A stretch of DNA of 6,605 bases from assembly GCA_003559395.1 (NCBI GenBank), contig PWLL01000017.1, forward strand, positions 1 through 6,605, written 5' to 3'. Made by a program: the position numbers and the translations under genes. Within the stretch, counting starts at the first letter, position 1, and each line of letters begins with the position of its first letter. The stretch comes from Candidatus Iainarchaeum sp. Its GTDB lineage: Archaea; Iainarchaeota; Iainarchaeia; Iainarchaeales; CSSED10-239. The notes under the pieces were generated by a model. That model was not told the DNA's origin and made no database searches. It saw only the letters and a program-made list of their open reading frames with translations. Positions 1 to 6,605 of the stretch are shown piece by piece.

Positions 1-2
1 AT

Positions 3-653
3 CATCATGATGATAATCTAGAATATGATAAATATCTGGATTGGTTAAATAATGTTTGGCAAGAAGTTAATAGAGTTCTGGTCTTAGGGGGCTGATTTTG
101 TTTAAATATTGCGCCAACAGGAATAAGTGATTTTATTTCTATTCATCATGATTTTACAAATCAATTAAGAAAAATTGGATTGAAATTTAGAACTGAAATT
201 ATATGGTATAAACAAACAATGTTAAAAAGAACAGCATGGGGTAGTTGGAAAAGTCCTTCAAATCCTCATATTATCCCATCTTGGGAATATTTGTTGATTT
301 TTAGTAAAGGTAAAAAAAAATAAGACGGAAATGCTAAAGATATAGATATTACTGCAGAGGAATTTAAGGAGTATTCTGATGGTTTTTGGAAAATTTCTCC
401 AGAAGTTAAAAGAAATGGTCATCCAGCACCATTTCCACAAGAATTAATCTATCGTCTTATAAAATTTTATTCTTATAAAAACCAAACAGTCTTAGATATG
501 TTTGGTGGTACAGGCACAGTAGCTGTTGTTGCAATGAAAACTCAAAGAAAATTTATTCATATTGATATTTCTGAAGAATATAATAAAACTGCAAAAGAAA
601 GATTAAATAAAGCAATTAAAAATCCAAAACAAATTTCTATTAAGTATTTTTGA
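3..653 (+). pseudogene. DNA methyltransferase, N4-cytosine/N6-adenine (DNA methylase N-4/N-6) family. The 5' end lies outside the window and two in-frame stop codons interrupt the frame.
   Basis: Frame +3 reads HHDDNLEYDKYLDWLNNVWQEVNRVLVLGG*FCLNIAPTGISDF...EIIWYKQTMLKRTAWGSWKSPSNPHIIPSWEYLLIFSKGKKK*DGNAKDIDITAEEFKEYSDGFWKISPEVKRNGHPAPFPQELIYRLIKFYSYKNQTVLDMFGGTGTVAVVAMKTQRKFIHIDISEEYNKTAKERLNKAIKNPKQISIKYF*. HPAPFPxEL, the FxGxG AdoMet motif (LDMFGGTGT) and the following RKFIHIDIS..Y block are hallmark C-terminal motifs of this family. The catalytic (D/S)PP(Y/F) motif would lie upstream of the window. In-frame TGA is at 93-95 and TAA at 321-323; the natural stop is TGA at 651-653. No frameshift is needed anywhere. 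Confidence 0.75.
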
Positions 654-733: not shown

Positions 734-2362
734 ATGATTTCTCAGAAAGAAAAACTTAAACAAATGTACAAAGAAGTAAAAGAAAAAAACATAAAATTTA
801 TAGTGATGACTGGGGGTGTTCTTTCTGGGCTTGGTAAAGGGGTTGCTCTTGCTAGTATAGGCTCTTTAATATCAAATGATCTTAAAAAAGTACCCATAAA
901 GTGTGATGGGTATCTTAATTATGATCCTGGCACTTTAAATCCTGTAGAACATGGAGAAGTCTTTGTTCTTGATGATGGTTCTGAAGTGGATATGGATTTT
1001 GGTCATTATGAGCGTTTCTTAAACATAACTTGTAATGGAAAGCAAAATCTAACTATGGGCAAGATATACAAAGACATAATAGATTTAGAAAGAGAAGGCA
1101 AGTTTCTTGGAAAAACTGTTCAGTTAATTCCTGATGTCACTAATTTTATTCAACAGTCAATTTTTTCAATTGCTCTTTCTCAAAAAGCAGATGTTGTTCT
1201 TTTAGAGATTGGAGGTACTATAGGTGATATAGAAAACGAGCTTTATTTTTTTGCAGTTAAAGAAATGGCCAGATATCTTAAGTCAAATATTTTTAATGTT
1301 CATTTAACTTATGTTCCTGAGATATTAGGTGGTGAACAAAAGACAAAACCAGCACAAACTAGTTTAGAAAAAGTATTTCATAGAGGGTTACAACCAGACG
1401 TGGTTCTTTGTAGATCTAAAAAAAGAATAGATGCTTCTTGTGAAGATAAGTTAGGTGTTTTTTCTGGTTTGTCTTCTGACAAAATCATCTCTGCAGAAGA
1501 TGTAAAAAACATATATGAAATTCCATTAAATTTTAAAAAACAAAATCTTGACGATATTGTTTGTGATAGTTTACAAGTTCCAAAAAACCAAGATTTTGAT
1601 GTGTTTAAAGAAAAGGTAGAAAAAATAACAACCAACCACAAAAACTCAAAAATAAAAACTATTGGAATTTGTGGAAAATATACAAAAATTAATGATTCTT
1701 ATGCTTCTGTTATTGAAGCCATAAACCACGCATCAACTTTTTTTGATACCAAAACAATTGTCAAATGTATAGATACAGAGAACGTAGATTCAGAAACTTT
1801 AGAACAAATAGATGGTTTCATTGTTCCTGGTGGTTTTGGAAATAGAGGTGTTGATGGAAAAATAAACATTATTAAGTACGCAAGAGAAAATAAAAAGCCT
1901 TTTTTAGGTTTATGTTATGGTTTACAGTTAGCAATTATTGAGTATGCAAAAAACGTACTTAACATAAAAGAGTGTAATTCAACAGAAATTGATTCTAAAA
2001 CTCCAAATCCTATTATTAAAATTCTACCAAACCAAGATTTAAATCTGCTTGGTGGTACTATGAGATTAGGTGCATATGAGGCTTGTTTGTTAAAAGGTTC
2101 TAAAGTTTTTTCTCTTTATAACTCTGACAAAGTCTCTGAAAGACACAGACATAGATATGAGGTAAATCCTGAATACCACAAACATTTAGAAGATGATCAC
2201 TTTGTTGTTTCTGGAAAAAGTCCTGATGGTTCTTTAGTTGAGTTTATAGAACTTAAAGATCATCCTTTTTTTGTTGCCACTCAAAGTCATCCAGAGCTTA
2301 AGTCAAGGATTGTTAATGCGCATCCTTTGTTTGTTGGTTTTTTAAAAGCAGTAAATCTTTAG
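734..2362 (+). CDS. pyrG: CTP synthase (glutamine-hydrolysing)
   Basis: 542-aa ORF. The N-terminal synthetase domain has TGGVLSGLGKG (P-loop), YLNYDPGTLNPVEHGEVFVLDDGSEVDMDFGHYERF and EIGGTIGDIE. The C-terminal class-I glutamine amidotransferase domain has the nucleophile Cys in GLCYGLQ, RHRHRYEVN and the catalytic His in QSHPE. Length and domain order are canonical. Confidence 0.97.
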   Translation: MISQKEKLKQMYKEVKEKNIKFIVMTGGVLSGLGKGVALASIGSLISNDLKKVPIKCDGYLNYDPGTLNPVEHGEVFVLDDGSEVDMDFGHYERFLNITCNGKQNLTMGKIYKDIIDLEREGKFLGKTVQLIPDVTNFIQQSIFSIALSQKADVVLLEIGGTIGDIENELYFFAVKEMARYLKSNIFNVHLTYVPEILGGEQKTKPAQTSLEKVFHRGLQPDVVLCRSKKRIDASCEDKLGVFSGLSSDKIISAEDVKNIYEIPLNFKKQNLDDIVCDSLQVPKNQDFDVFKEKVEKITTNHKNSKIKTIGICGKYTKINDSYASVIEAINHASTFFDTKTIVKCIDTENVDSETLEQIDGFIVPGGFGNRGVDGKINIIKYARENKKPFLGLCYGLQLAIIEYAKNVLNIKECNSTEIDSKTPNPIIKILPNQDLNLLGGTMRLGAYEACLLKGSKVFSLYNSDKVSERHRHRYEVNPEYHKHLEDDHFVVSGKSPDGSLVEFIELKDHPFFVATQSHPELKSRIVNAHPLFVGFLKAVNL

Positions 2363-3219
2363 TTTCTTTTAAGACTTATTTCTGTTGCGTATTTTTGTTT
2401 ACCTAAATTTTGTCCTATTTTTATTTTTTTACAGTCTTTTCTATATTTTCTTACTTTATTTTCTTTTTTTTTAATACTTTTTTTAGAAATTATTCCTGGC
2501 CCACCAACACATCCTCCATGACAGAACAAAGCGTCTACAAATTTTGTGTTTTTATTAATTTTTTTTAAAGTTTTTTCTATATTTTCTGGTCCTTGACAAC
2601 AAAGGGTTTGATTTTTAGACAATATTTCTTTTGCGTGCATTGTTTCTGCTACTGCTCCTGCTAAAGGATATATTTTTGTATAGTCGTTATAATATTTATC
2701 AAAATCAGTTGTTTGGTTTTCTTTAGTATCTAAAAGTAGTTTATTTTTTTTTGCATAGTCTATCATTTGTTTTAGTTCTTTAAAGGTTATGGCATAGTCT
2801 ATATCTTTTTTATTTTCTAGTGCTTCTATTTTTTTAGTTATACAAGGTCCAACAAAAACACAGGTGTTTTTTTCTTTAAAATGTTTTTTAATAAATCTTC
2901 CCATAACCACCATTGGTGATGCAATATTTGCAAGATATTCTTTATATTCTGGATATTTATTTTCAATAGTTTTTACTAGTGATGGACAGTTTGTACAAAT
3001 GATTGGCTTTTTTGTTTTTTTAAGTTGTTTTTTGTATTCTGTATTTATTATTTTTGCAGCGAAAGTAAGTTCTGAGACTTTTGAAAACCCAAGTTGTTTA
3101 AGGGTTTTAATTATTTTTGGATATTTAAAATCTACAACAAAGCTAGGTGCTAACAAACAAACACATCTTTTGGTTTGTAGGACTTTTAGCAAGTCAACAA
3201 GTTCTTTTGATATTTCCAT
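2359..3219 (-). CDS. [FeFe]-hydrogenase H-domain-only (Fe_hyd_lg_C-like / Nar1-like) iron-sulfur protein, ultraminimal at 286 aa
   Basis: By-eye alignment to the Clostridium CpI H-domain: LLAPSF ~ AMAPSV; TLKQLGFSKV ~ ALRQLGFDKI; PIICTNCPSLV ~ PMFTSCCPGWV (motif 1, nt 2983-2997); FVGPCITKKIEA ~ VMPCTSKKFEA (motif 2); DIDYAITFKEL ~ DIDAVITTREL; ALFCHGGCVGGPG ~ VMACHGGCVNGGGQP (motif 3, CHGGC at nt 2509-2523). The four H-cluster [4Fe-4S] Cys ligand equivalents (C78, C126, C233, C237) and the PCxxK Lys are present. There are no N-terminal ferredoxin-like domains. Confidence 0.85.
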   Translation of the reverse strand: MEISKELVDLLKVLQTKRCVCLLAPSFVVDFKYPKIIKTLKQLGFSKVSELTFAAKIINTEYKKQLKKTKKPIICTNCPSLVKTIENKYPEYKEYLANIASPMVVMGRFIKKHFKEKNTCVFVGPCITKKIEALENKKDIDYAITFKELKQMIDYAKKNKLLLDTKENQTTDFDKYYNDYTKIYPLAGAVAETMHAKEILSKNQTLCCQGPENIEKTLKKINKNTKFVDALFCHGGCVGGPGIISKKSIKKKENKVRKYRKDCKKIKIGQNLGKQKYATEISLKRN

Positions 3220-3221
3220 AT

Positions 3222-4208
3222 TTATTCTTTTTTTAAAATATATTTTTCATATTTACTGTTTTTGTTTTTTAATAAAACAATCATCGATCTTTTACAATCG
3301 TCAACAATCTCAAAGCTATCTGATTCTTTTTCAACATCTTCTGCAAATTTCAAACAGTCTTCAAAAGAAGGCATGTTTTTTTCTTCTAGATTGTTTCTAG
3401 ATGCTCCCAGATACATATATGCTTTTATTTCTATAAAATCTGCTTTTGTTTTTTCAAAAATATCTATTAGTTGTTTTTGGTTTTCTTTTTTATCGTTTAT
3501 TTCTTTTATGAGTGTGTATCTTATGACTCTTCTTGTTTTTATATCTGGCATTAAAGCAATTGTTTGGTTTAGTCTTTTCCAAGAGTCTTTTATTTTTGGT
3601 TGATTTATAAATAAGTGTTGTTTTTCGTTTGCACTTTCTATTGACAAGTAAAGTTGTGTTGGCAGGCTATTTGTTTCGTTTAGTTTTTTAAGAATTTCTG
3701 TTTCAAGTCCGTTTGTTACTAAAAAAACGGTTTTTGTTTCTGGTCGTTCTTTTATTTTTTTTATCAGTTTATCAAGATCTTTATAAAGAGTTGGTTCGCC
3801 AGATAAAGAAATGGCCACATGGCTTGGAATCAGTGCTTCTTTATATTTGTTTTCGGACACTTTTTTGTTTCCTTTAAAGCCGCTTAGCAGTTTTTTTCTA
3901 GCTTCGTAAAGTCCATCAATCATCTCATCGATATCATCTGAAAACTCACAATCTATAACATCATAAGTCATCTTTTTTGCAGGTCTCCAACAAAAAATAC
4001 AGTTTTGTTGACACCACAAGACTGTTGGGGTTATTTGTACGCATCTATGACATTCAACATTATAAAATTTTTGTTTATAACAAACTCCTTCTTCTCTAAG
4101 TGCTTTTTTATTCCACGAACAAATAGCTATTGCTGAGTGTTTTCCGTAGATCCCATATTTTTTATGTTTTAGATCTTCTATATTTTCTTTTGATATTTCT
4201 TGAACCAT
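3222..4208 (-). CDS. taw1: tRNA 4-demethylwyosine synthase (radical SAM; archaeal Taw1 / TYW1 homologue)
   Basis: 328-aa ORF. The radical-SAM CxxxCxxC lies in WCQQNCIFCWRP (nt 3990-4013). It is preceded by the Taw1-specific auxiliary-cluster cysteines in the pattern AICSW..(12)..GVCYKQKFY..ECHRCVQITP (C30, C43, C56). The SLSGEPTLY (GGEP-type) SAM motif follows. Spacing matches Methanocaldococcus Taw1 (C26/C39/C52 and C62/C66/C69) with a +4 offset. The flavodoxin domain of eukaryotic TYW1 is absent. Confidence 0.92.
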   Translation of the reverse strand: MVQEISKENIEDLKHKKYGIYGKHSAIAICSWNKKALREEGVCYKQKFYNVECHRCVQITPTVLWCQQNCIFCWRPAKKMTYDVIDCEFSDDIDEMIDGLYEARKKLLSGFKGNKKVSENKYKEALIPSHVAISLSGEPTLYKDLDKLIKKIKERPETKTVFLVTNGLETEILKKLNETNSLPTQLYLSIESANEKQHLFINQPKIKDSWKRLNQTIALMPDIKTRRVIRYTLIKEINDKKENQKQLIDIFEKTKADFIEIKAYMYLGASRNNLEEKNMPSFEDCLKFAEDVEKESDSFEIVDDCKRSMIVLLKNKNSKYEKYILKKE

Positions 4209-4230
4209 AATATATCTTTAGTCCAAACTT

Positions 4231-4239
4231 TATTTAAAA
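4231..4239 (-). promoter_or_regulatory. TATA-box-like element for taw1 (leaderless geometry)
   Basis: The minus strand reads TTTTAAATA centred 27 nt upstream of the taw1 ATG (4208), inside the 38-nt gap after the upstream gene. There is no SD-like sequence before the ATG. Confidence 0.4.
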
Positions 4240-4246
4240 GGTGTTT

Positions 4247-4867
4247 TTAACTCACATATTTTAGTATTGTTTTGTTTGTGTTGATTTTGTGTTTTAGATT
4301 GATTATGATTTTATTAAGTTGTTCTATTTTTTTTATTGCTGTTTCTTTCTTAAAGTCTTGTTTTTTCTTATTTGCATCGCCTACGTTAAAGTTTTTATAA
4401 ACAACTGAGGTTGAGACTGTTTCTCCTAGTTTTTTACGATATTCAGAGTCTATTAAAAAGGTATCTAATAAAGCTTCGTATTTTGGGTCTGTAAGTGTTT
4501 CTTCTGAAAGTCTTGCTTTTTCAACATCTTTTTTATATTCTGCGTCTGTTGCCATTCTTAGTTTATGTTTCCAATATATTTTTTTAAAGTTTTTTTTAAA
4601 AGAGTTTATTTTATAATAATTTTCTGCTGATGTTTTTTCTTTTTCCCAAAACTTGTGTTCTTTTTTTTTATCGTCTATCATTTTTTGTGTTTCTTTAATT
4701 ATTTCGTTTATGTCTTTTTTTTTAGGATAGGTTATTTTTCGATTCTCAATTCTAACAAATTTTGTTCTAAAGAATGTTTCCCAATATTTCTTTTCTTCTT
4801 TTGGTATTTTCTTATTTATTTTTTCTTCAAGTTTTGAGATGTCATTTATTGTACTTGATGTGCTCAT
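4247..4867 (-). CDS. Hypothetical protein, very basic and Lys-rich with many aromatic residues; no family recognised
   Basis: 206-aa ORF on the same strand as taw1, ending 38 nt upstream of it. The composition is coding-like (K/E/I/N-rich like its neighbours) and a C-terminal heptad-like segment (IKKIEQLNKIIINLKHKI) suggests a coiled coil. It has no Cys and no recognisable catalytic motif. A purine-rich AAGGA lies about 9 nt before the ATG. Confidence 0.65.
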   Translation of the reverse strand: MSTSSTINDISKLEEKINKKIPKEEKKYWETFFRTKFVRIENRKITYPKKKDINEIIKETQKMIDDKKKEHKFWEKEKTSAENYYKINSFKKNFKKIYWKHKLRMATDAEYKKDVEKARLSEETLTDPKYEALLDTFLIDSEYRKKLGETVSTSVVYKNFNVGDANKKKQDFKKETAIKKIEQLNKIIINLKHKINTNKTILKYVS

Positions 4868-4901
4868 ATGTTTTTCCTTCTTTTGATATTTGTCCTTTCT
4901 C

Positions 4902-4910
4902 TTATAAAAA
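4902..4910 (-). promoter_or_regulatory. TATA-box-like element for the basic hypothetical gene
   Basis: The minus strand reads TTTTTATAA with 34 nt to the ATG at 4867, implying a short leader of about 10 nt containing AAGGA. Confidence 0.25.
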
Positions 4911-4939
4911 GATGTAGGTTTGTTTTTAAATATGTTTTT

Positions 4940-4977
4940 ATATGCTTTTTGTTACATAAATATATATGTAAGCATAT
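4940..4977. repeat. Imperfect inverted repeat in the divergent promoter region
   Basis: ATATGC(4940-4945)-tttttg-TTACATA(4952-4958)-aatata-TATGTAA(4965-4971)-GCATAT(4972-4977). Thirteen bases pair per arm, with a 6-nt bulge in the left arm. It is AT-rich, so chance occurrence is not negligible. Confidence 0.3.
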
Positions 4978-4990
4978 TAAAACATATGTT

Positions 4991-5018: not shown

Positions 5019-5357
5019 ATGTTTCCAAATATGGGTGGAATTGACCCTAGAAAAATAGATTCTATGATGAAAAAAATGGGTATTCAAAATAAAGAGCTTA
5101 ATGCAAAAAAAGTTGTTATTGAGACTGATACTGAGACAATTGTTATCAATAACCCAACAGTGACTGAAATAACTATGCAAGGTCAAAAAACTTTCCAGGT
5201 TGTTGGAGAGGTTTGTTCTGAAGAGCAAGGTCTTTCTGATGAAGATATAACTATGGTTGCTGAAACTGCAAGCGTTTCAAAAGAAAAAGCAAAGGAAGTT
5301 TTAGAAAAGAATGATGGCGATCTTGCTAAGACTATAGATGTTCTTAAGAAAGAATAA
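5019..5357 (+). CDS. nac: Nascent polypeptide-associated complex protein (archaeal NAC alpha homologue; NAC domain plus C-terminal UBA domain)
   Basis: 112-aa ORF. The N-terminus MFPNMGGIDPRKIDSMMKKMGI matches the conserved archaeal NAC N-terminus (MxPGGMNPxxMxxMMxQMGI). The NAC beta-barrel region is KKVVIETDTETIVINNPTVTEITMQGQKTFQVVGE. The C-terminal UBA-like helices are ITMVAETASVSKEKAKEVLEKNDGDLAKTIDVL. The size is typical of archaeal NAC. Confidence 0.93.
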   Translation: MFPNMGGIDPRKIDSMMKKMGIQNKELNAKKVVIETDTETIVINNPTVTEITMQGQKTFQVVGEVCSEEQGLSDEDITMVAETASVSKEKAKEVLEKNDGDLAKTIDVLKKE

Positions 5358-5512: not shown

Positions 5513-6605
5513 TTATTGTTCTTCGGCATAATCTTCTATCTCTTCATCTAATCTTTCTTCTGCTCTCATCACCCACATCTGCAATATCTCGTTTCTTACA
5601 GCTATTCCTTGCACATCAAACAAAAGTTCTGTTTTGTTTATATCTTCTGGATATCTAAGATGTGTTTCTGTTATATCTTGTTCATAAACATGTTCTTTAT
5701 CATTAAAAACAAGGTCGTCTAGTTTTATGTTTGCTGATTTGTTTATTGATAAGATTTTTAGATTTTTTTCTTCTAGTATGTTTGTTATTGCTTCAACATC
5801 GATTGTTTCTTTATAAAACACAATCGATATGTTTCTTTTTGGTTCTTGAGTGATTTCATATTCTTCAAGTATTGAAGATATTTCTTCTTTTATGTTAATA
5901 TATTCTTCTACACTTATTTTTTCTTTAAAAGAGAGGATTATGTTTTCTTTAACAATCAAATCTTGCACTTCTTCTTTTTCTTTAATATAATCAAACTGAT
6001 TAGCATCTGTTATATTTTTATCAGGAACAACTTCTAGATTTTCTGAAACAAAAACATTTATTTCTTCTTCTGCAAATGTTTTTTTAAGATAATTTACATC
6101 TACTTCTGTGTAGATGTCTGTTTCTGCTGACAAGATGATTTTTTCGTTCCAAGATTCTATCTCATATACTTTTTGATCAAATATCATTTCTTGTTGTGTA
6201 CTTAGGTTTTGTTGTTCTTGTGCAACAAGATGTATAAGCGTATCTCCTTTAAACCAACCGACCACGCTTGCAAATAAAGCGTCTTCTTTTTCTGTATGGT
6301 ATGACATTATGGCTTCTACTTTTCCTGCAGGGTGAAAATATTCTTTTGTTTGGTTTGTGTCTGGATTTTTAAATTCAAGTTCTTTTGGAATTTCTAATAG
6401 TCCGTTTTGTAAAATATCTACTTGTTCAAAGATTTCAAGTTCTTGTAATTGCATATATATTTCTTCTTTTTTTTCTGAATCATATCCTACATGAATTAAA
6501 GCAACAATATCTTCTTCAATAGGAATAAAAGATATATCTACTGTGTTTACTCCTTCTATTTCTCTTAATGTGTTTTCTATTGTTGTTTCTTCATAAACGT
6601 TTGGA
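5513..6605 (-). CDS. Hypothetical protein, strongly acidic and Glu/Asp/Ile-rich; the 5' end probably lies beyond the right window edge
   Basis: The ORF track starts it at the ATG at 6452-6454. I translated the same minus frame upstream and it stays open to position 6604: PNVYEETTIENTLREIEGVNTVDISFIPIEEDIVALIHVGYDSEKKEEIYMQLQELEIF... The composition is identical to the rest of the protein. No TATA-like or SD-like signal lies directly upstream of the ATG at 6454. No known family is recognised, and no Cys cluster or transmembrane segment is present. Confidence 0.7.
   Translation of the reverse strand, partial: PNVYEETTIENTLREIEGVNTVDISFIPIEEDIVALIHVGYDSEKKEEIYMQLQELEIFEQVDILQNGLLEIPKELEFKNPDTNQTKEYFHPAGKVEAIMSYHTEKEDALFASVVGWFKGDTLIHLVAQEQQNLSTQQEMIFDQKVYEIESWNEKIILSAETDIYTEVDVNYLKKTFAEEEINVFVSENLEVVPDKNITDANQFDYIKEKEEVQDLIVKENIILSFKEKISVEEYINIKEEISSILEEYEITQEPKRNISIVFYKETIDVEAITNILEEKNLKILSINKSANIKLDDLVFNDKEHVYEQDITETHLRYPEDINKTELLFDVQGIAVRNEILQMWVMRAEERLDEEIEDYAEEQ

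Follow-up and report, generated by a model that had tools for sequence, protein, structure and literature searches.

The contig PWLL01000017.1 of Candidatus Iainarchaeum sp. (assembly GCA_003559395.1) carries, one directly behind the other, a gene for a tRNA-modifying enzyme and a gene for a small [FeFe] hydrogenase, and it is this pair that is analyzed here. The window, i.e., the whole stretch of DNA considered, spans the 6,605 nucleotides from position 1 to position 6,605 of the contig. On its minus strand, taw1 (positions 3222..4208; ATG at 4206-4208, TAA at 3222-3224) codes for a 328-aa archaeal single-domain 4-demethylwyosine synthase (TYW1/Taw1), and hydA (2359..3219; ATG at 3217-3219, TAA at 2359-2361) codes for a 286-aa group E "ultraminimal" [FeFe] hydrogenase. 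At the junction between them (3217..3224, minus strand), a spacer of 2 nt (3220-3221) separates the taw1 stop codon from the hydA start codon. An earlier note, made from the letters of this stretch, had given exactly these coordinates and this spacing and had proposed that the second protein serves Taw1 as a dedicated redox or Fe-S partner.

The 328-aa product scores 349.9 bits against TIGR03972 (rSAM_TYW1), above the equivalog cut-off of 317.95. Its Pfam domains are Radical_SAM (PF04055; SAM, S-adenosylmethionine) and Wyosine_form (PF08608), and the Pfam search detected no other domain; a flavodoxin domain (flavodoxin_1) is absent, as in the archaeal single-domain type. The matching PDB entries are 2YX0 from P. 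horikoshii (E = 1e-73) and 6DJT/2Z2U from M. jannaschii (E = 2e-61). The radical-SAM motif C66-x3-C70-x2-C73 aligns with the counterparts in these structures, and so do C30, C43, C56, and K45 (within CYK), which we take, from the roles established for MjTaw1, to be the auxiliary-cluster cysteines and the lysine that forms a Schiff base with pyruvate. By these features the product is classed as a bona fide archaeal Taw1, for which formation of imG-14 on tRNA-Phe (from m1G37 and pyruvate) is predicted only. Eukaryotic TYW1 contains a fused flavodoxin domain, which constitutes an in-situ reducing system and makes the enzyme self-sufficient with NAD(P)H, whereas archaeal Taw1 is single-domain and has been assayed only with dithionite, methyl viologen, or free flavins (PMC8941971). 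The background given in the earlier note, i.e., a flavodoxin fused in eukaryotes and missing in archaea, is correct in this respect.

The 286-aa product of hydA has Fe_hyd_lg_C as its sole Pfam match (E = 7.6e-47, profile positions 2-245 of 245, residues 18-241), and the domain search revealed no accessory Fe-S domain, the protein consisting of the H-domain only. The four H-cluster cysteines (C78, C126, C233, and C237) are invariant in an alignment of 22 family members, comprising the window protein and 21 relatives, and the same is true for K129, the A24-P25-S26 motif, and S101-P102. With respect to CpI, the four cysteines correspond to C300, C355, C499, and C503, and K129 corresponds to K358; the APS motif is presumably equivalent to CpI 230-232, as judged from knowledge of the motif. 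The proton-relay cysteine is not retained, since C299 of CpI (TSCCP) is replaced by N77 (TNCP), and across the family this position is occupied by asparagine or another residue that is not cysteine. Similarly, M353 and M497 of CpI align with G124 and L231. An AlphaFold2 model of the hydA product (predicted local distance difference test, pLDDT, 87.2; predicted template modeling score, pTM, 0.88) finds as its top PDB matches in Foldseek the H-domains of CpI, T. kivui HydA (of HydABC), and CbA5H, with E values of about 1e-15 and query TM-scores (TMq) of 0.70-0.78.

These properties are those of the "group E ultraminimal [FeFe] hydrogenases" described from DPANN archaea, which have an average of 286 residues, differ from other [FeFe] hydrogenases in their proton-transfer residues, and are modeled with a solvent-exposed H-cluster (Greening et al., Cell 2024; PMC11216029). 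The enzyme of Ca. Forterrea multitransposorum (Fm) binds the H-cluster and evolves H2 after artificial maturation, most archaeal hosts of group E are without HydEFG, and an alternative maturation pathway has been postulated (PMC11216029). The hydA product is 55% identical over residues 1-285 to the Forterrea enzyme (P0014; L001, CP045477.1) and resembles group E in its size of 286 aa, in consisting of the H-domain only, in its four H-cluster cysteines, and in its altered proton-transfer residues. It is classed, on its residues and domain content, as a true group E hydrogenase and not merely a hydrogenase-like protein, and H2 turnover of its own is predicted. What the earlier note had taken for an undescribed hydrogenase-like Fe-S protein belongs instead to a published family of active hydrogenases (PMC11216029).

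Statements on promoters rest here on the reading of TATA-like elements. The spacer of 38 nt upstream of taw1 (4209-4246) contains the TATA-box-like element TTTTAAATAA (4230..4239, minus strand), which is centered about 27 nt upstream of the taw1 ATG and preceded by CACC (4240-4243), the whole element CACC-TTTTAAATAA occupying 4230-4243 of the minus strand. A CACC-TTT(T)AWAW element is also present upstream of taw1 in the related loci L001, L002, L003, L004, and L006. Since a TATA-like box centered 27 nt before the start codon corresponds to the geometry of leaderless archaeal genes, this element is likely to be the promoter of a leaderless taw1-hyd transcript. The final ~25 nt of taw1 are TATA-like in the window as well (TATATTTTAAAAAAAG), and in most relatives TTTTATAA is situated about 15-27 nt before the hyd ATG, where it encodes the conserved NFI(I)K tail of Taw1. 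In this genome of 28% GC, an internal promoter for hyd at the 3′ end of taw1 is possible. That neither a promoter nor a Shine-Dalgarno (SD) element lies between the two genes, as had been claimed, is trivially right for a spacer of 2 nt and cannot be extended to the TATA-like 3′ end of taw1. No SD-like element precedes the hyd ATG in the window; in many relatives, the end of taw1 contains GGAG, GAGGT, or AGGT at a distance of 6-12 nt from the hyd ATG, and an SD within the end of the upstream gene is usual for the downstream cistron of an archaeal operon. With a TATA box of its own for taw1 at -27 and a gap of 2 nt to hydA, the proposed co-transcription and translational coupling seem plausible, i.e., taw1 and hydA may constitute a two-gene operon in which hydA would be translated by coupling or re-initiation 2 nt past the taw1 stop codon.

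The pair is not a peculiarity of this genome. GTDB species representatives were scanned with the hydrogenase alignment, and the best 80 of 277 loci were kept. A Taw1 with 52-66% identity is encoded immediately upstream and on the same strand in 18 of these best 80 loci; the gap between taw1 and hyd could be called in 17 relatives and lies between -17 and +15 nt in 16 of them, the remaining one having 45 nt. The Forterrea group E gene itself (L001) is situated directly behind taw1, as is hydA in the window. In a neighbor-joining (NJ) tree of the hydrogenases, these 18 and the window protein make up all archaeal members of one superclade, in which the linkage is complete (19/19), and the other archaeal sequences, which are of the Nanoarchaeota type, form a clade separate from it. 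Further linked pairs occur on metagenome contigs (L081, L083/84, L127/132, L150/159, and L168). Among them, L081 is the closest long relative and shares the context of the window, with taw1 and hyd overlapping by 4 nt (gap -4), and in L168, where Taw1 is 52% identical, the gap is 132 nt. In L150/L159, a 192-aa open reading frame (ORF) of unknown function (4408-4986) is inserted between taw1 and hyd and the packing is still tight, the ORF overlapping taw1 by 4 nt and ending 2 nt before the hyd ATG; this insertion implies an operon of three or four cistrons in that lineage. The identities between pairs of Taw1 proteins (51-96%) rise and fall with those between the corresponding hydrogenases (45-96%; r = 0.79, a value reached by 0 of 2000 permutations in a Mantel test), which argues that the pair is inherited as a unit. 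An adjacency unique to this genome would, according to the earlier note, have spoken against its proposal; the adjacency extends throughout the clade, down to identities of 51% for Taw1 and 45% for the hydrogenase.

The genes around the pair are of several kinds. Most linked loci have the order ArgRS, DsbA-like gene, taw1, and hyd, followed farther on by radA with a variable gene before it. In the Forterrea subclade, a DsbA-like gene and taw1-hyd are followed by sufU/D/B/C, and in the window and L081 NAC and a 205-aa ORF precede the pair and pyrG follows it. The taw1-hyd pair stays together where the flanks differ. In L001, L002, L005, L006, L083, L084, L127, L132, and L168, the genes sufC, sufB, sufD, and sufU converge on the hyd end, and L081 has a cysteine desulfurase and a NifU gene about 7 kb away.

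Group E genes outside the Taw1-linked superclade have other neighbors. In the NJ tree, 35 hydrogenases from bacteria of the Candidate Phyla Radiation (CPR) that use genetic code 25 are sister to one of the two Taw1-linked groups, a branching which suggests inter-domain transfer of group E genes between DPANN and CPR. Such genes are common in code-25 (UGA = Gly) CPR, i.e., in Absconditabacteria/SR1 and Gracilibacteria-type bins (35 loci within L008-L063, e.g., L010, L023, and L048). The gene order in these bacteria is uvrB, a RimO-like radical-SAM methylthiotransferase of the MiaB/RimO family, hyd, a HemW-like radical-SAM protein, and nusA. RimO is encoded at most three genes from hyd in 26 of the 35 loci, most of the others being truncated contigs, and nine loci show the order hyd then RimO, i.e., hyd and RimO remain neighbors through a rearrangement.

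A metagenome scan centered on a deep-branching archaeal clade provided about 15 loci in which hyd is situated between a TrhP/UbiU-like U32 enzyme and a TIGR04084 (AF0577-type) radical-SAM/SPASM protein. At the U32-hyd-SPASM loci L078, L085-L101, and L105 (U32 being the prephenate-dependent hydroxylase family), a gene for an RsmB/NOL1-like RNA methyltransferase is found nearby. In other small clades the gene directly upstream of hyd codes for an 81-aa 4Fe-4S ferredoxin, a ferredoxin:thioredoxin-reductase (FTR) beta-like protein, or the alpha/beta subunits of a 2-oxoacid:ferredoxin oxidoreductase (OFOR); LSM and RNase Z, neither of them an Fe-S protein, are also encoded in this position, and many group E loci have no radical-SAM neighbor at all. 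Radical-SAM families make up 4 of the 16 families found repeatedly (in three loci or more) at ±1, as compared to 1 of 51 at a distance of at least three genes from hyd, that one being RimO itself. This enrichment at ±1 (Fisher p = 0.01, or 0.0025 without RimO) was tested post hoc and on families that are partly dependent on one another. The overall pattern is one of group E genes placed again and again next to genes of enzymes that either require low-potential electrons or provide them.

Taken with the conserved operon, this gene neighborhood leads us to favor, tentatively and at somewhat short of an even chance, the view that the group E hydrogenase exchanges electrons with Taw1 as its redox partner. 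The hydrogenase would be a plug-in H2/H+ redox module which, being without accessory clusters and having an exposed H-cluster, might swap low-potential electrons, either directly or via a small ferredoxin, with the Fe-S enzyme encoded alongside. At the locus studied here, H2 would provide the electrons for reducing the radical-SAM cluster, [4Fe-4S]2+, of Taw1, and the hydrogenase would thus do in trans the job of the flavodoxin domain fused in eukaryotic TYW1. The need of Taw1 for a reductant can be counted in favor of such a partnership, since the archaeal enzyme is without the flavodoxin that serves its eukaryotic counterpart as a reducing system (PMC8941971). The proposal of the earlier note has gained circumstantial support, in that other group E clades are found beside radical-SAM or other Fe-S redox enzymes, and the link to Taw1 itself is still drawn from adjacency.

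Known systems offer partial parallels for electron exchange between the two proteins. The catalytic enzyme is the same as in eukaryotic TYW1 (PMC8941971), to which a dedicated module for delivering low-potential electrons is tied by fusion, and here the tie would be an operon; in contrast to the eukaryotic case, the tied module is a separate hydrogenase H-domain polypeptide and the proposed electron source is H2, not NAD(P)H. Chlamydomonas HydA1 with its partner PetF likewise has no accessory F-clusters, and its partner therefore has to bind close to the [4Fe-4S]H subcluster. HydA1, however, is a group A enzyme of 457 aa which has kept the proton-relay cysteine, is matured by HydEFG, and has a ferredoxin and not a radical-SAM enzyme as its partner. 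The same job as proposed here, one-electron reduction of the [4Fe-4S]2+ cluster in radical-SAM enzymes, is carried out by FldA/Fpr in E. coli and by ferredoxins and FNR for MiaB in T. maritima (cited in PMC8941971), but these are general carriers fed by NADPH and encoded elsewhere, whereas the candidate hydrogenase belongs to the same operon as its presumed client.

A different account has a substantial chance of being right, although one that we place clearly below even: the hydrogenase would be fermentative, passing electrons from pyruvate:ferredoxin oxidoreductase (PFOR) via ferredoxin and HydA to H2, and its gene, inserted once behind taw1 in the ancestor of the clade, would have been kept there by dependence on the taw1 promoter and by conservative gene order, with no functional link to Taw1. 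Several observations support this account and weigh against a partnership with Taw1. Greening et al. themselves read group E as ferredoxin-oxidizing, H2-evolving fermentative enzymes and note the adjacency of OFOR genes (PMC11216029); this view is consistent with about 10 loci of the Nanoarchaeota type in which hyd comes after OFOR, and Forterrea encodes PFOR and ferredoxin (PMC5905446). As judged from the tree, the taw1-hyd linkage arose once, in a single DPANN clade of the Iainarchaeota/Forterrea type, and has been kept since. The wider neighborhood in this clade is largely syntenic too, and once hyd depends on the taw1 promoter, the adjacency might be kept by neutral retention whatever the function. 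Genes for Taw1 proteins that are about 50% identical and fall outside the clade (L082, L165, L166, and L167) are followed by unrelated genes, 4 of 4 sampled being without an adjacent hydrogenase, which indicates that Taw1 does not generally need the hydrogenase; with the 52% identical Taw1 of L168 still linked, the boundary on the Taw1 side is sharp. Fusions of the two domains, for which the earlier note had advised to look, occur neither among the top 120 Taw1 relatives, all of which have 321-365 aa with PF04055 and PF08608, nor among the top 150 matches of the hydrogenase profile in 1.84 billion representatives. Long matches to this profile, with the H-domain at residues ~60-330 and N- and C-terminal extensions, are taken to be group B/C/D-like architectures. 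On the same side of the balance are the character of the CPR array, a co-directional housekeeping block with gaps of 27-127 nt and no overlaps, and the weakness of H2 at low partial pressure as a reductant relative to radical-SAM clusters. Furthermore, the lack of HydEFG in most hosts puts the assembly of the H-cluster in vivo in question (PMC11216029).

What a purely fermentative role behind a borrowed promoter leaves unexplained is that independent clades place group E genes beside a U32 Fe-S hydroxylase, an FTR-like protein, and radical-SAM enzymes of four different families. In addition, it would seem odd for a main catabolic enzyme to be encoded by a second cistron that has no SD and follows the gene of a low-abundance tRNA-modification enzyme, and the proton-relay cysteine is missing in the hydrogenase. 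With N77 in place of that cysteine and with hyd second in the operon, a low-flux partner might fit better than an enzyme of bulk catabolism.

It is very unlikely that the protein mainly holds a [4Fe-4S] cluster in vivo and, in the manner of Nar1, loads the two clusters of Taw1, which the earlier note had offered as an alternative, or repairs them, and that its relatives act likewise on RimO and other clients. The absence of HydEFG from most host archaea (PMC11216029) would agree with such a function, and so would the sufU-sufD-sufB-sufC genes abutting the pair in the Forterrea subclade, the cysteine desulfurase and NifU gene of L081, and the auxiliary clusters of the neighboring client enzymes. 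Nar1/NARFL has the Fe_hyd_lg_C fold in common with the hydA product, and eukaryotic TYW1 is an Fe-S client protein. However, Nar1 has an additional N-terminal cluster and no catalytic 2Fe site, whereas the hydA product is without the former and keeps the residues of the latter: only C19 and C21 precede the H-domain motifs, neither being conserved in the family alignment, and the 2Fe-subcluster contacts (K129, the APS motif, and the bridging cysteine C237) are invariant. Membership in the Nar1-like group is ruled out by the absence of the N-terminal cysteine cluster, and the locus provides no context of the cytosolic iron-sulfur assembly (CIA) pathway. The Forterrea homolog, moreover, binds a functional H-cluster (PMC11216029), the suf genes adjoin the pair in one subclade only and are convergent and not co-transcribed with it, and the ferredoxin, OFOR, and FTR neighbors point to electron transfer.

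The converse dependence, in which the adjacent radical-SAM enzymes would replace HydE and HydG in an alternative maturation of the H-cluster, would make sense of archaea that have active group E enzymes and lack HydEFG, for which such a pathway was postulated (PMC11216029), and of radical-SAM genes flanking hyd in three lineages, but seems the most improbable of the explanations considered, given that the flanking families differ in each lineage, that Taw1 passes the TYW1 equivalog cut-off and keeps its pyruvate-binding lysine and auxiliary cysteines, that the RimO-like and HemW-like proteins are housekeeping types, and that many group E loci are without any radical-SAM neighbor. A Taw1 neofunctionalized as a maturase was rejected as a leading idea, all catalytic residues being present.

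The partnership of hydrogenase and Taw1 can be extended to group E as a whole. In these lineages, group E enzymes might not be primarily fermentative and might instead use H2 to activate, as their dedicated task, radical-SAM and other Fe-S enzymes that modify RNA (Taw1, RimO, HemW-like proteins, AF0577-type SPASM proteins, and the U32 hydroxylase); the ultra-small DPANN archaea and CPR bacteria would then take H2 from the environment or from a host as the direct reductant for their radical-SAM chemistry, and the module would have moved horizontally between domains. In this general form the proposal appears unlikely.

Taken alone, each of the two genes adds one more member to a family already known. 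Full-text searches of the literature that combined Taw1 or TYW1 with hydrogenase retrieved no description of such a module, in agreement with the earlier note. The paper that defined group E in 2024 surveyed archaea only, and in its main text neither wyosine nor radical SAM is mentioned; it discusses the adjacency of OFOR, and the Taw1 linkage, the code-25 CPR members, and the pattern of radical-SAM neighbors are not in that text (PMC11216029). The conserved taw1-hydA operon, the group E genes of code-25 CPR, and the radical-SAM neighborhood pattern appear to be undescribed, and together they point to a new, unproven functional context for a known type of enzyme. The finding bears on the reductant of archaeal radical-SAM enzymes and on what the smallest known hydrogenases do in vivo, in hosts that have reduced genomes and lack the standard maturases, and the parallel linkage in CPR and other DPANN clades broadens the question to RimO. 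If the hydrogenase with H2 can indeed reduce Taw1 or RimO in place of dithionite, episymbiotic microbes would draw electrons for the modification of tRNA and ribosomes directly from H2, and the pair would represent a minimal system, of two proteins, in which H2 drives radical-SAM catalysis. If not, the locus is that of a known hydrogenase co-transcribed with a housekeeping gene.

Some further observations concern the hydrogenase family. Immediately next to hyd, several unrelated clades (L049, L050, L074, L080, L104, L106, L107, L112, L122, L135, L150, and L159) encode a membrane protein with multiple passes, which has about 181 aa and a conserved HPQW motif but no Pfam or NCBIfam match; in L150/L159 its gene overlaps the hyd stop codon. 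This protein may be a membrane partner of the hydrogenase and may be comparable to "hyd6TM," which was described for group A (PMC11216029). In P0242, a predicted protein of 4122 aa, the profile of the group E hydrogenase is matched by 14 separate stretches (E = 7e-113); either P0242 is a giant protein built of repeats, or assembly or gene calling has produced an artefact. An apparent in-frame TGA in the hydrogenase of L013, which might have meant recoding or selenocysteine (Sec), was dismissed, as the tblastn alignment had crossed the taw1 stop codon.

The window has a GC content of 28%, ranging from 25 to 31% throughout without a compositional break, and this profile gives no sign of a recent transfer of the hydrogenase gene. 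A tRNA scan and an Rfam scan of the window gave no match. Upstream of taw1 follows directly a lysine-rich ORF of 206 aa (4247-4867, minus strand) without a Pfam or NCBIfam match, which is conserved in L081 as an ORF of 205 aa. Beyond it are an archaeal NAC gene, assigned by family match (5019-5357, plus strand), and a very acidic 313-aa ORF without a Pfam or NCBIfam match (5513-6454, minus strand). At the other end of the window, a DNA methyltransferase (N6_N4_Mtase) frame (1-653, plus strand, frame 3) starts at the window edge and is interrupted in frame twice, by TGA (93-95) and by TAA (321-323), and no more than its final 51 codons (498-653) form an ORF; it is probably a decaying pseudogene. 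The CTP synthase gene pyrG (734-2362, plus strand; TIGR00337, 660 bits) is convergent with hydA, and by sequence reading the stop codons of the two genes overlap by 4 nt (2359..2362), an arrangement also found in L081 that leaves no room for a separate terminator. A pyrG gene also lies downstream of the hydrogenase gene in L144-L146, which belong to an unrelated Nanoarchaeota-type clade and in which the two genes are co-directional, and this recurrence is probably a coincidence.

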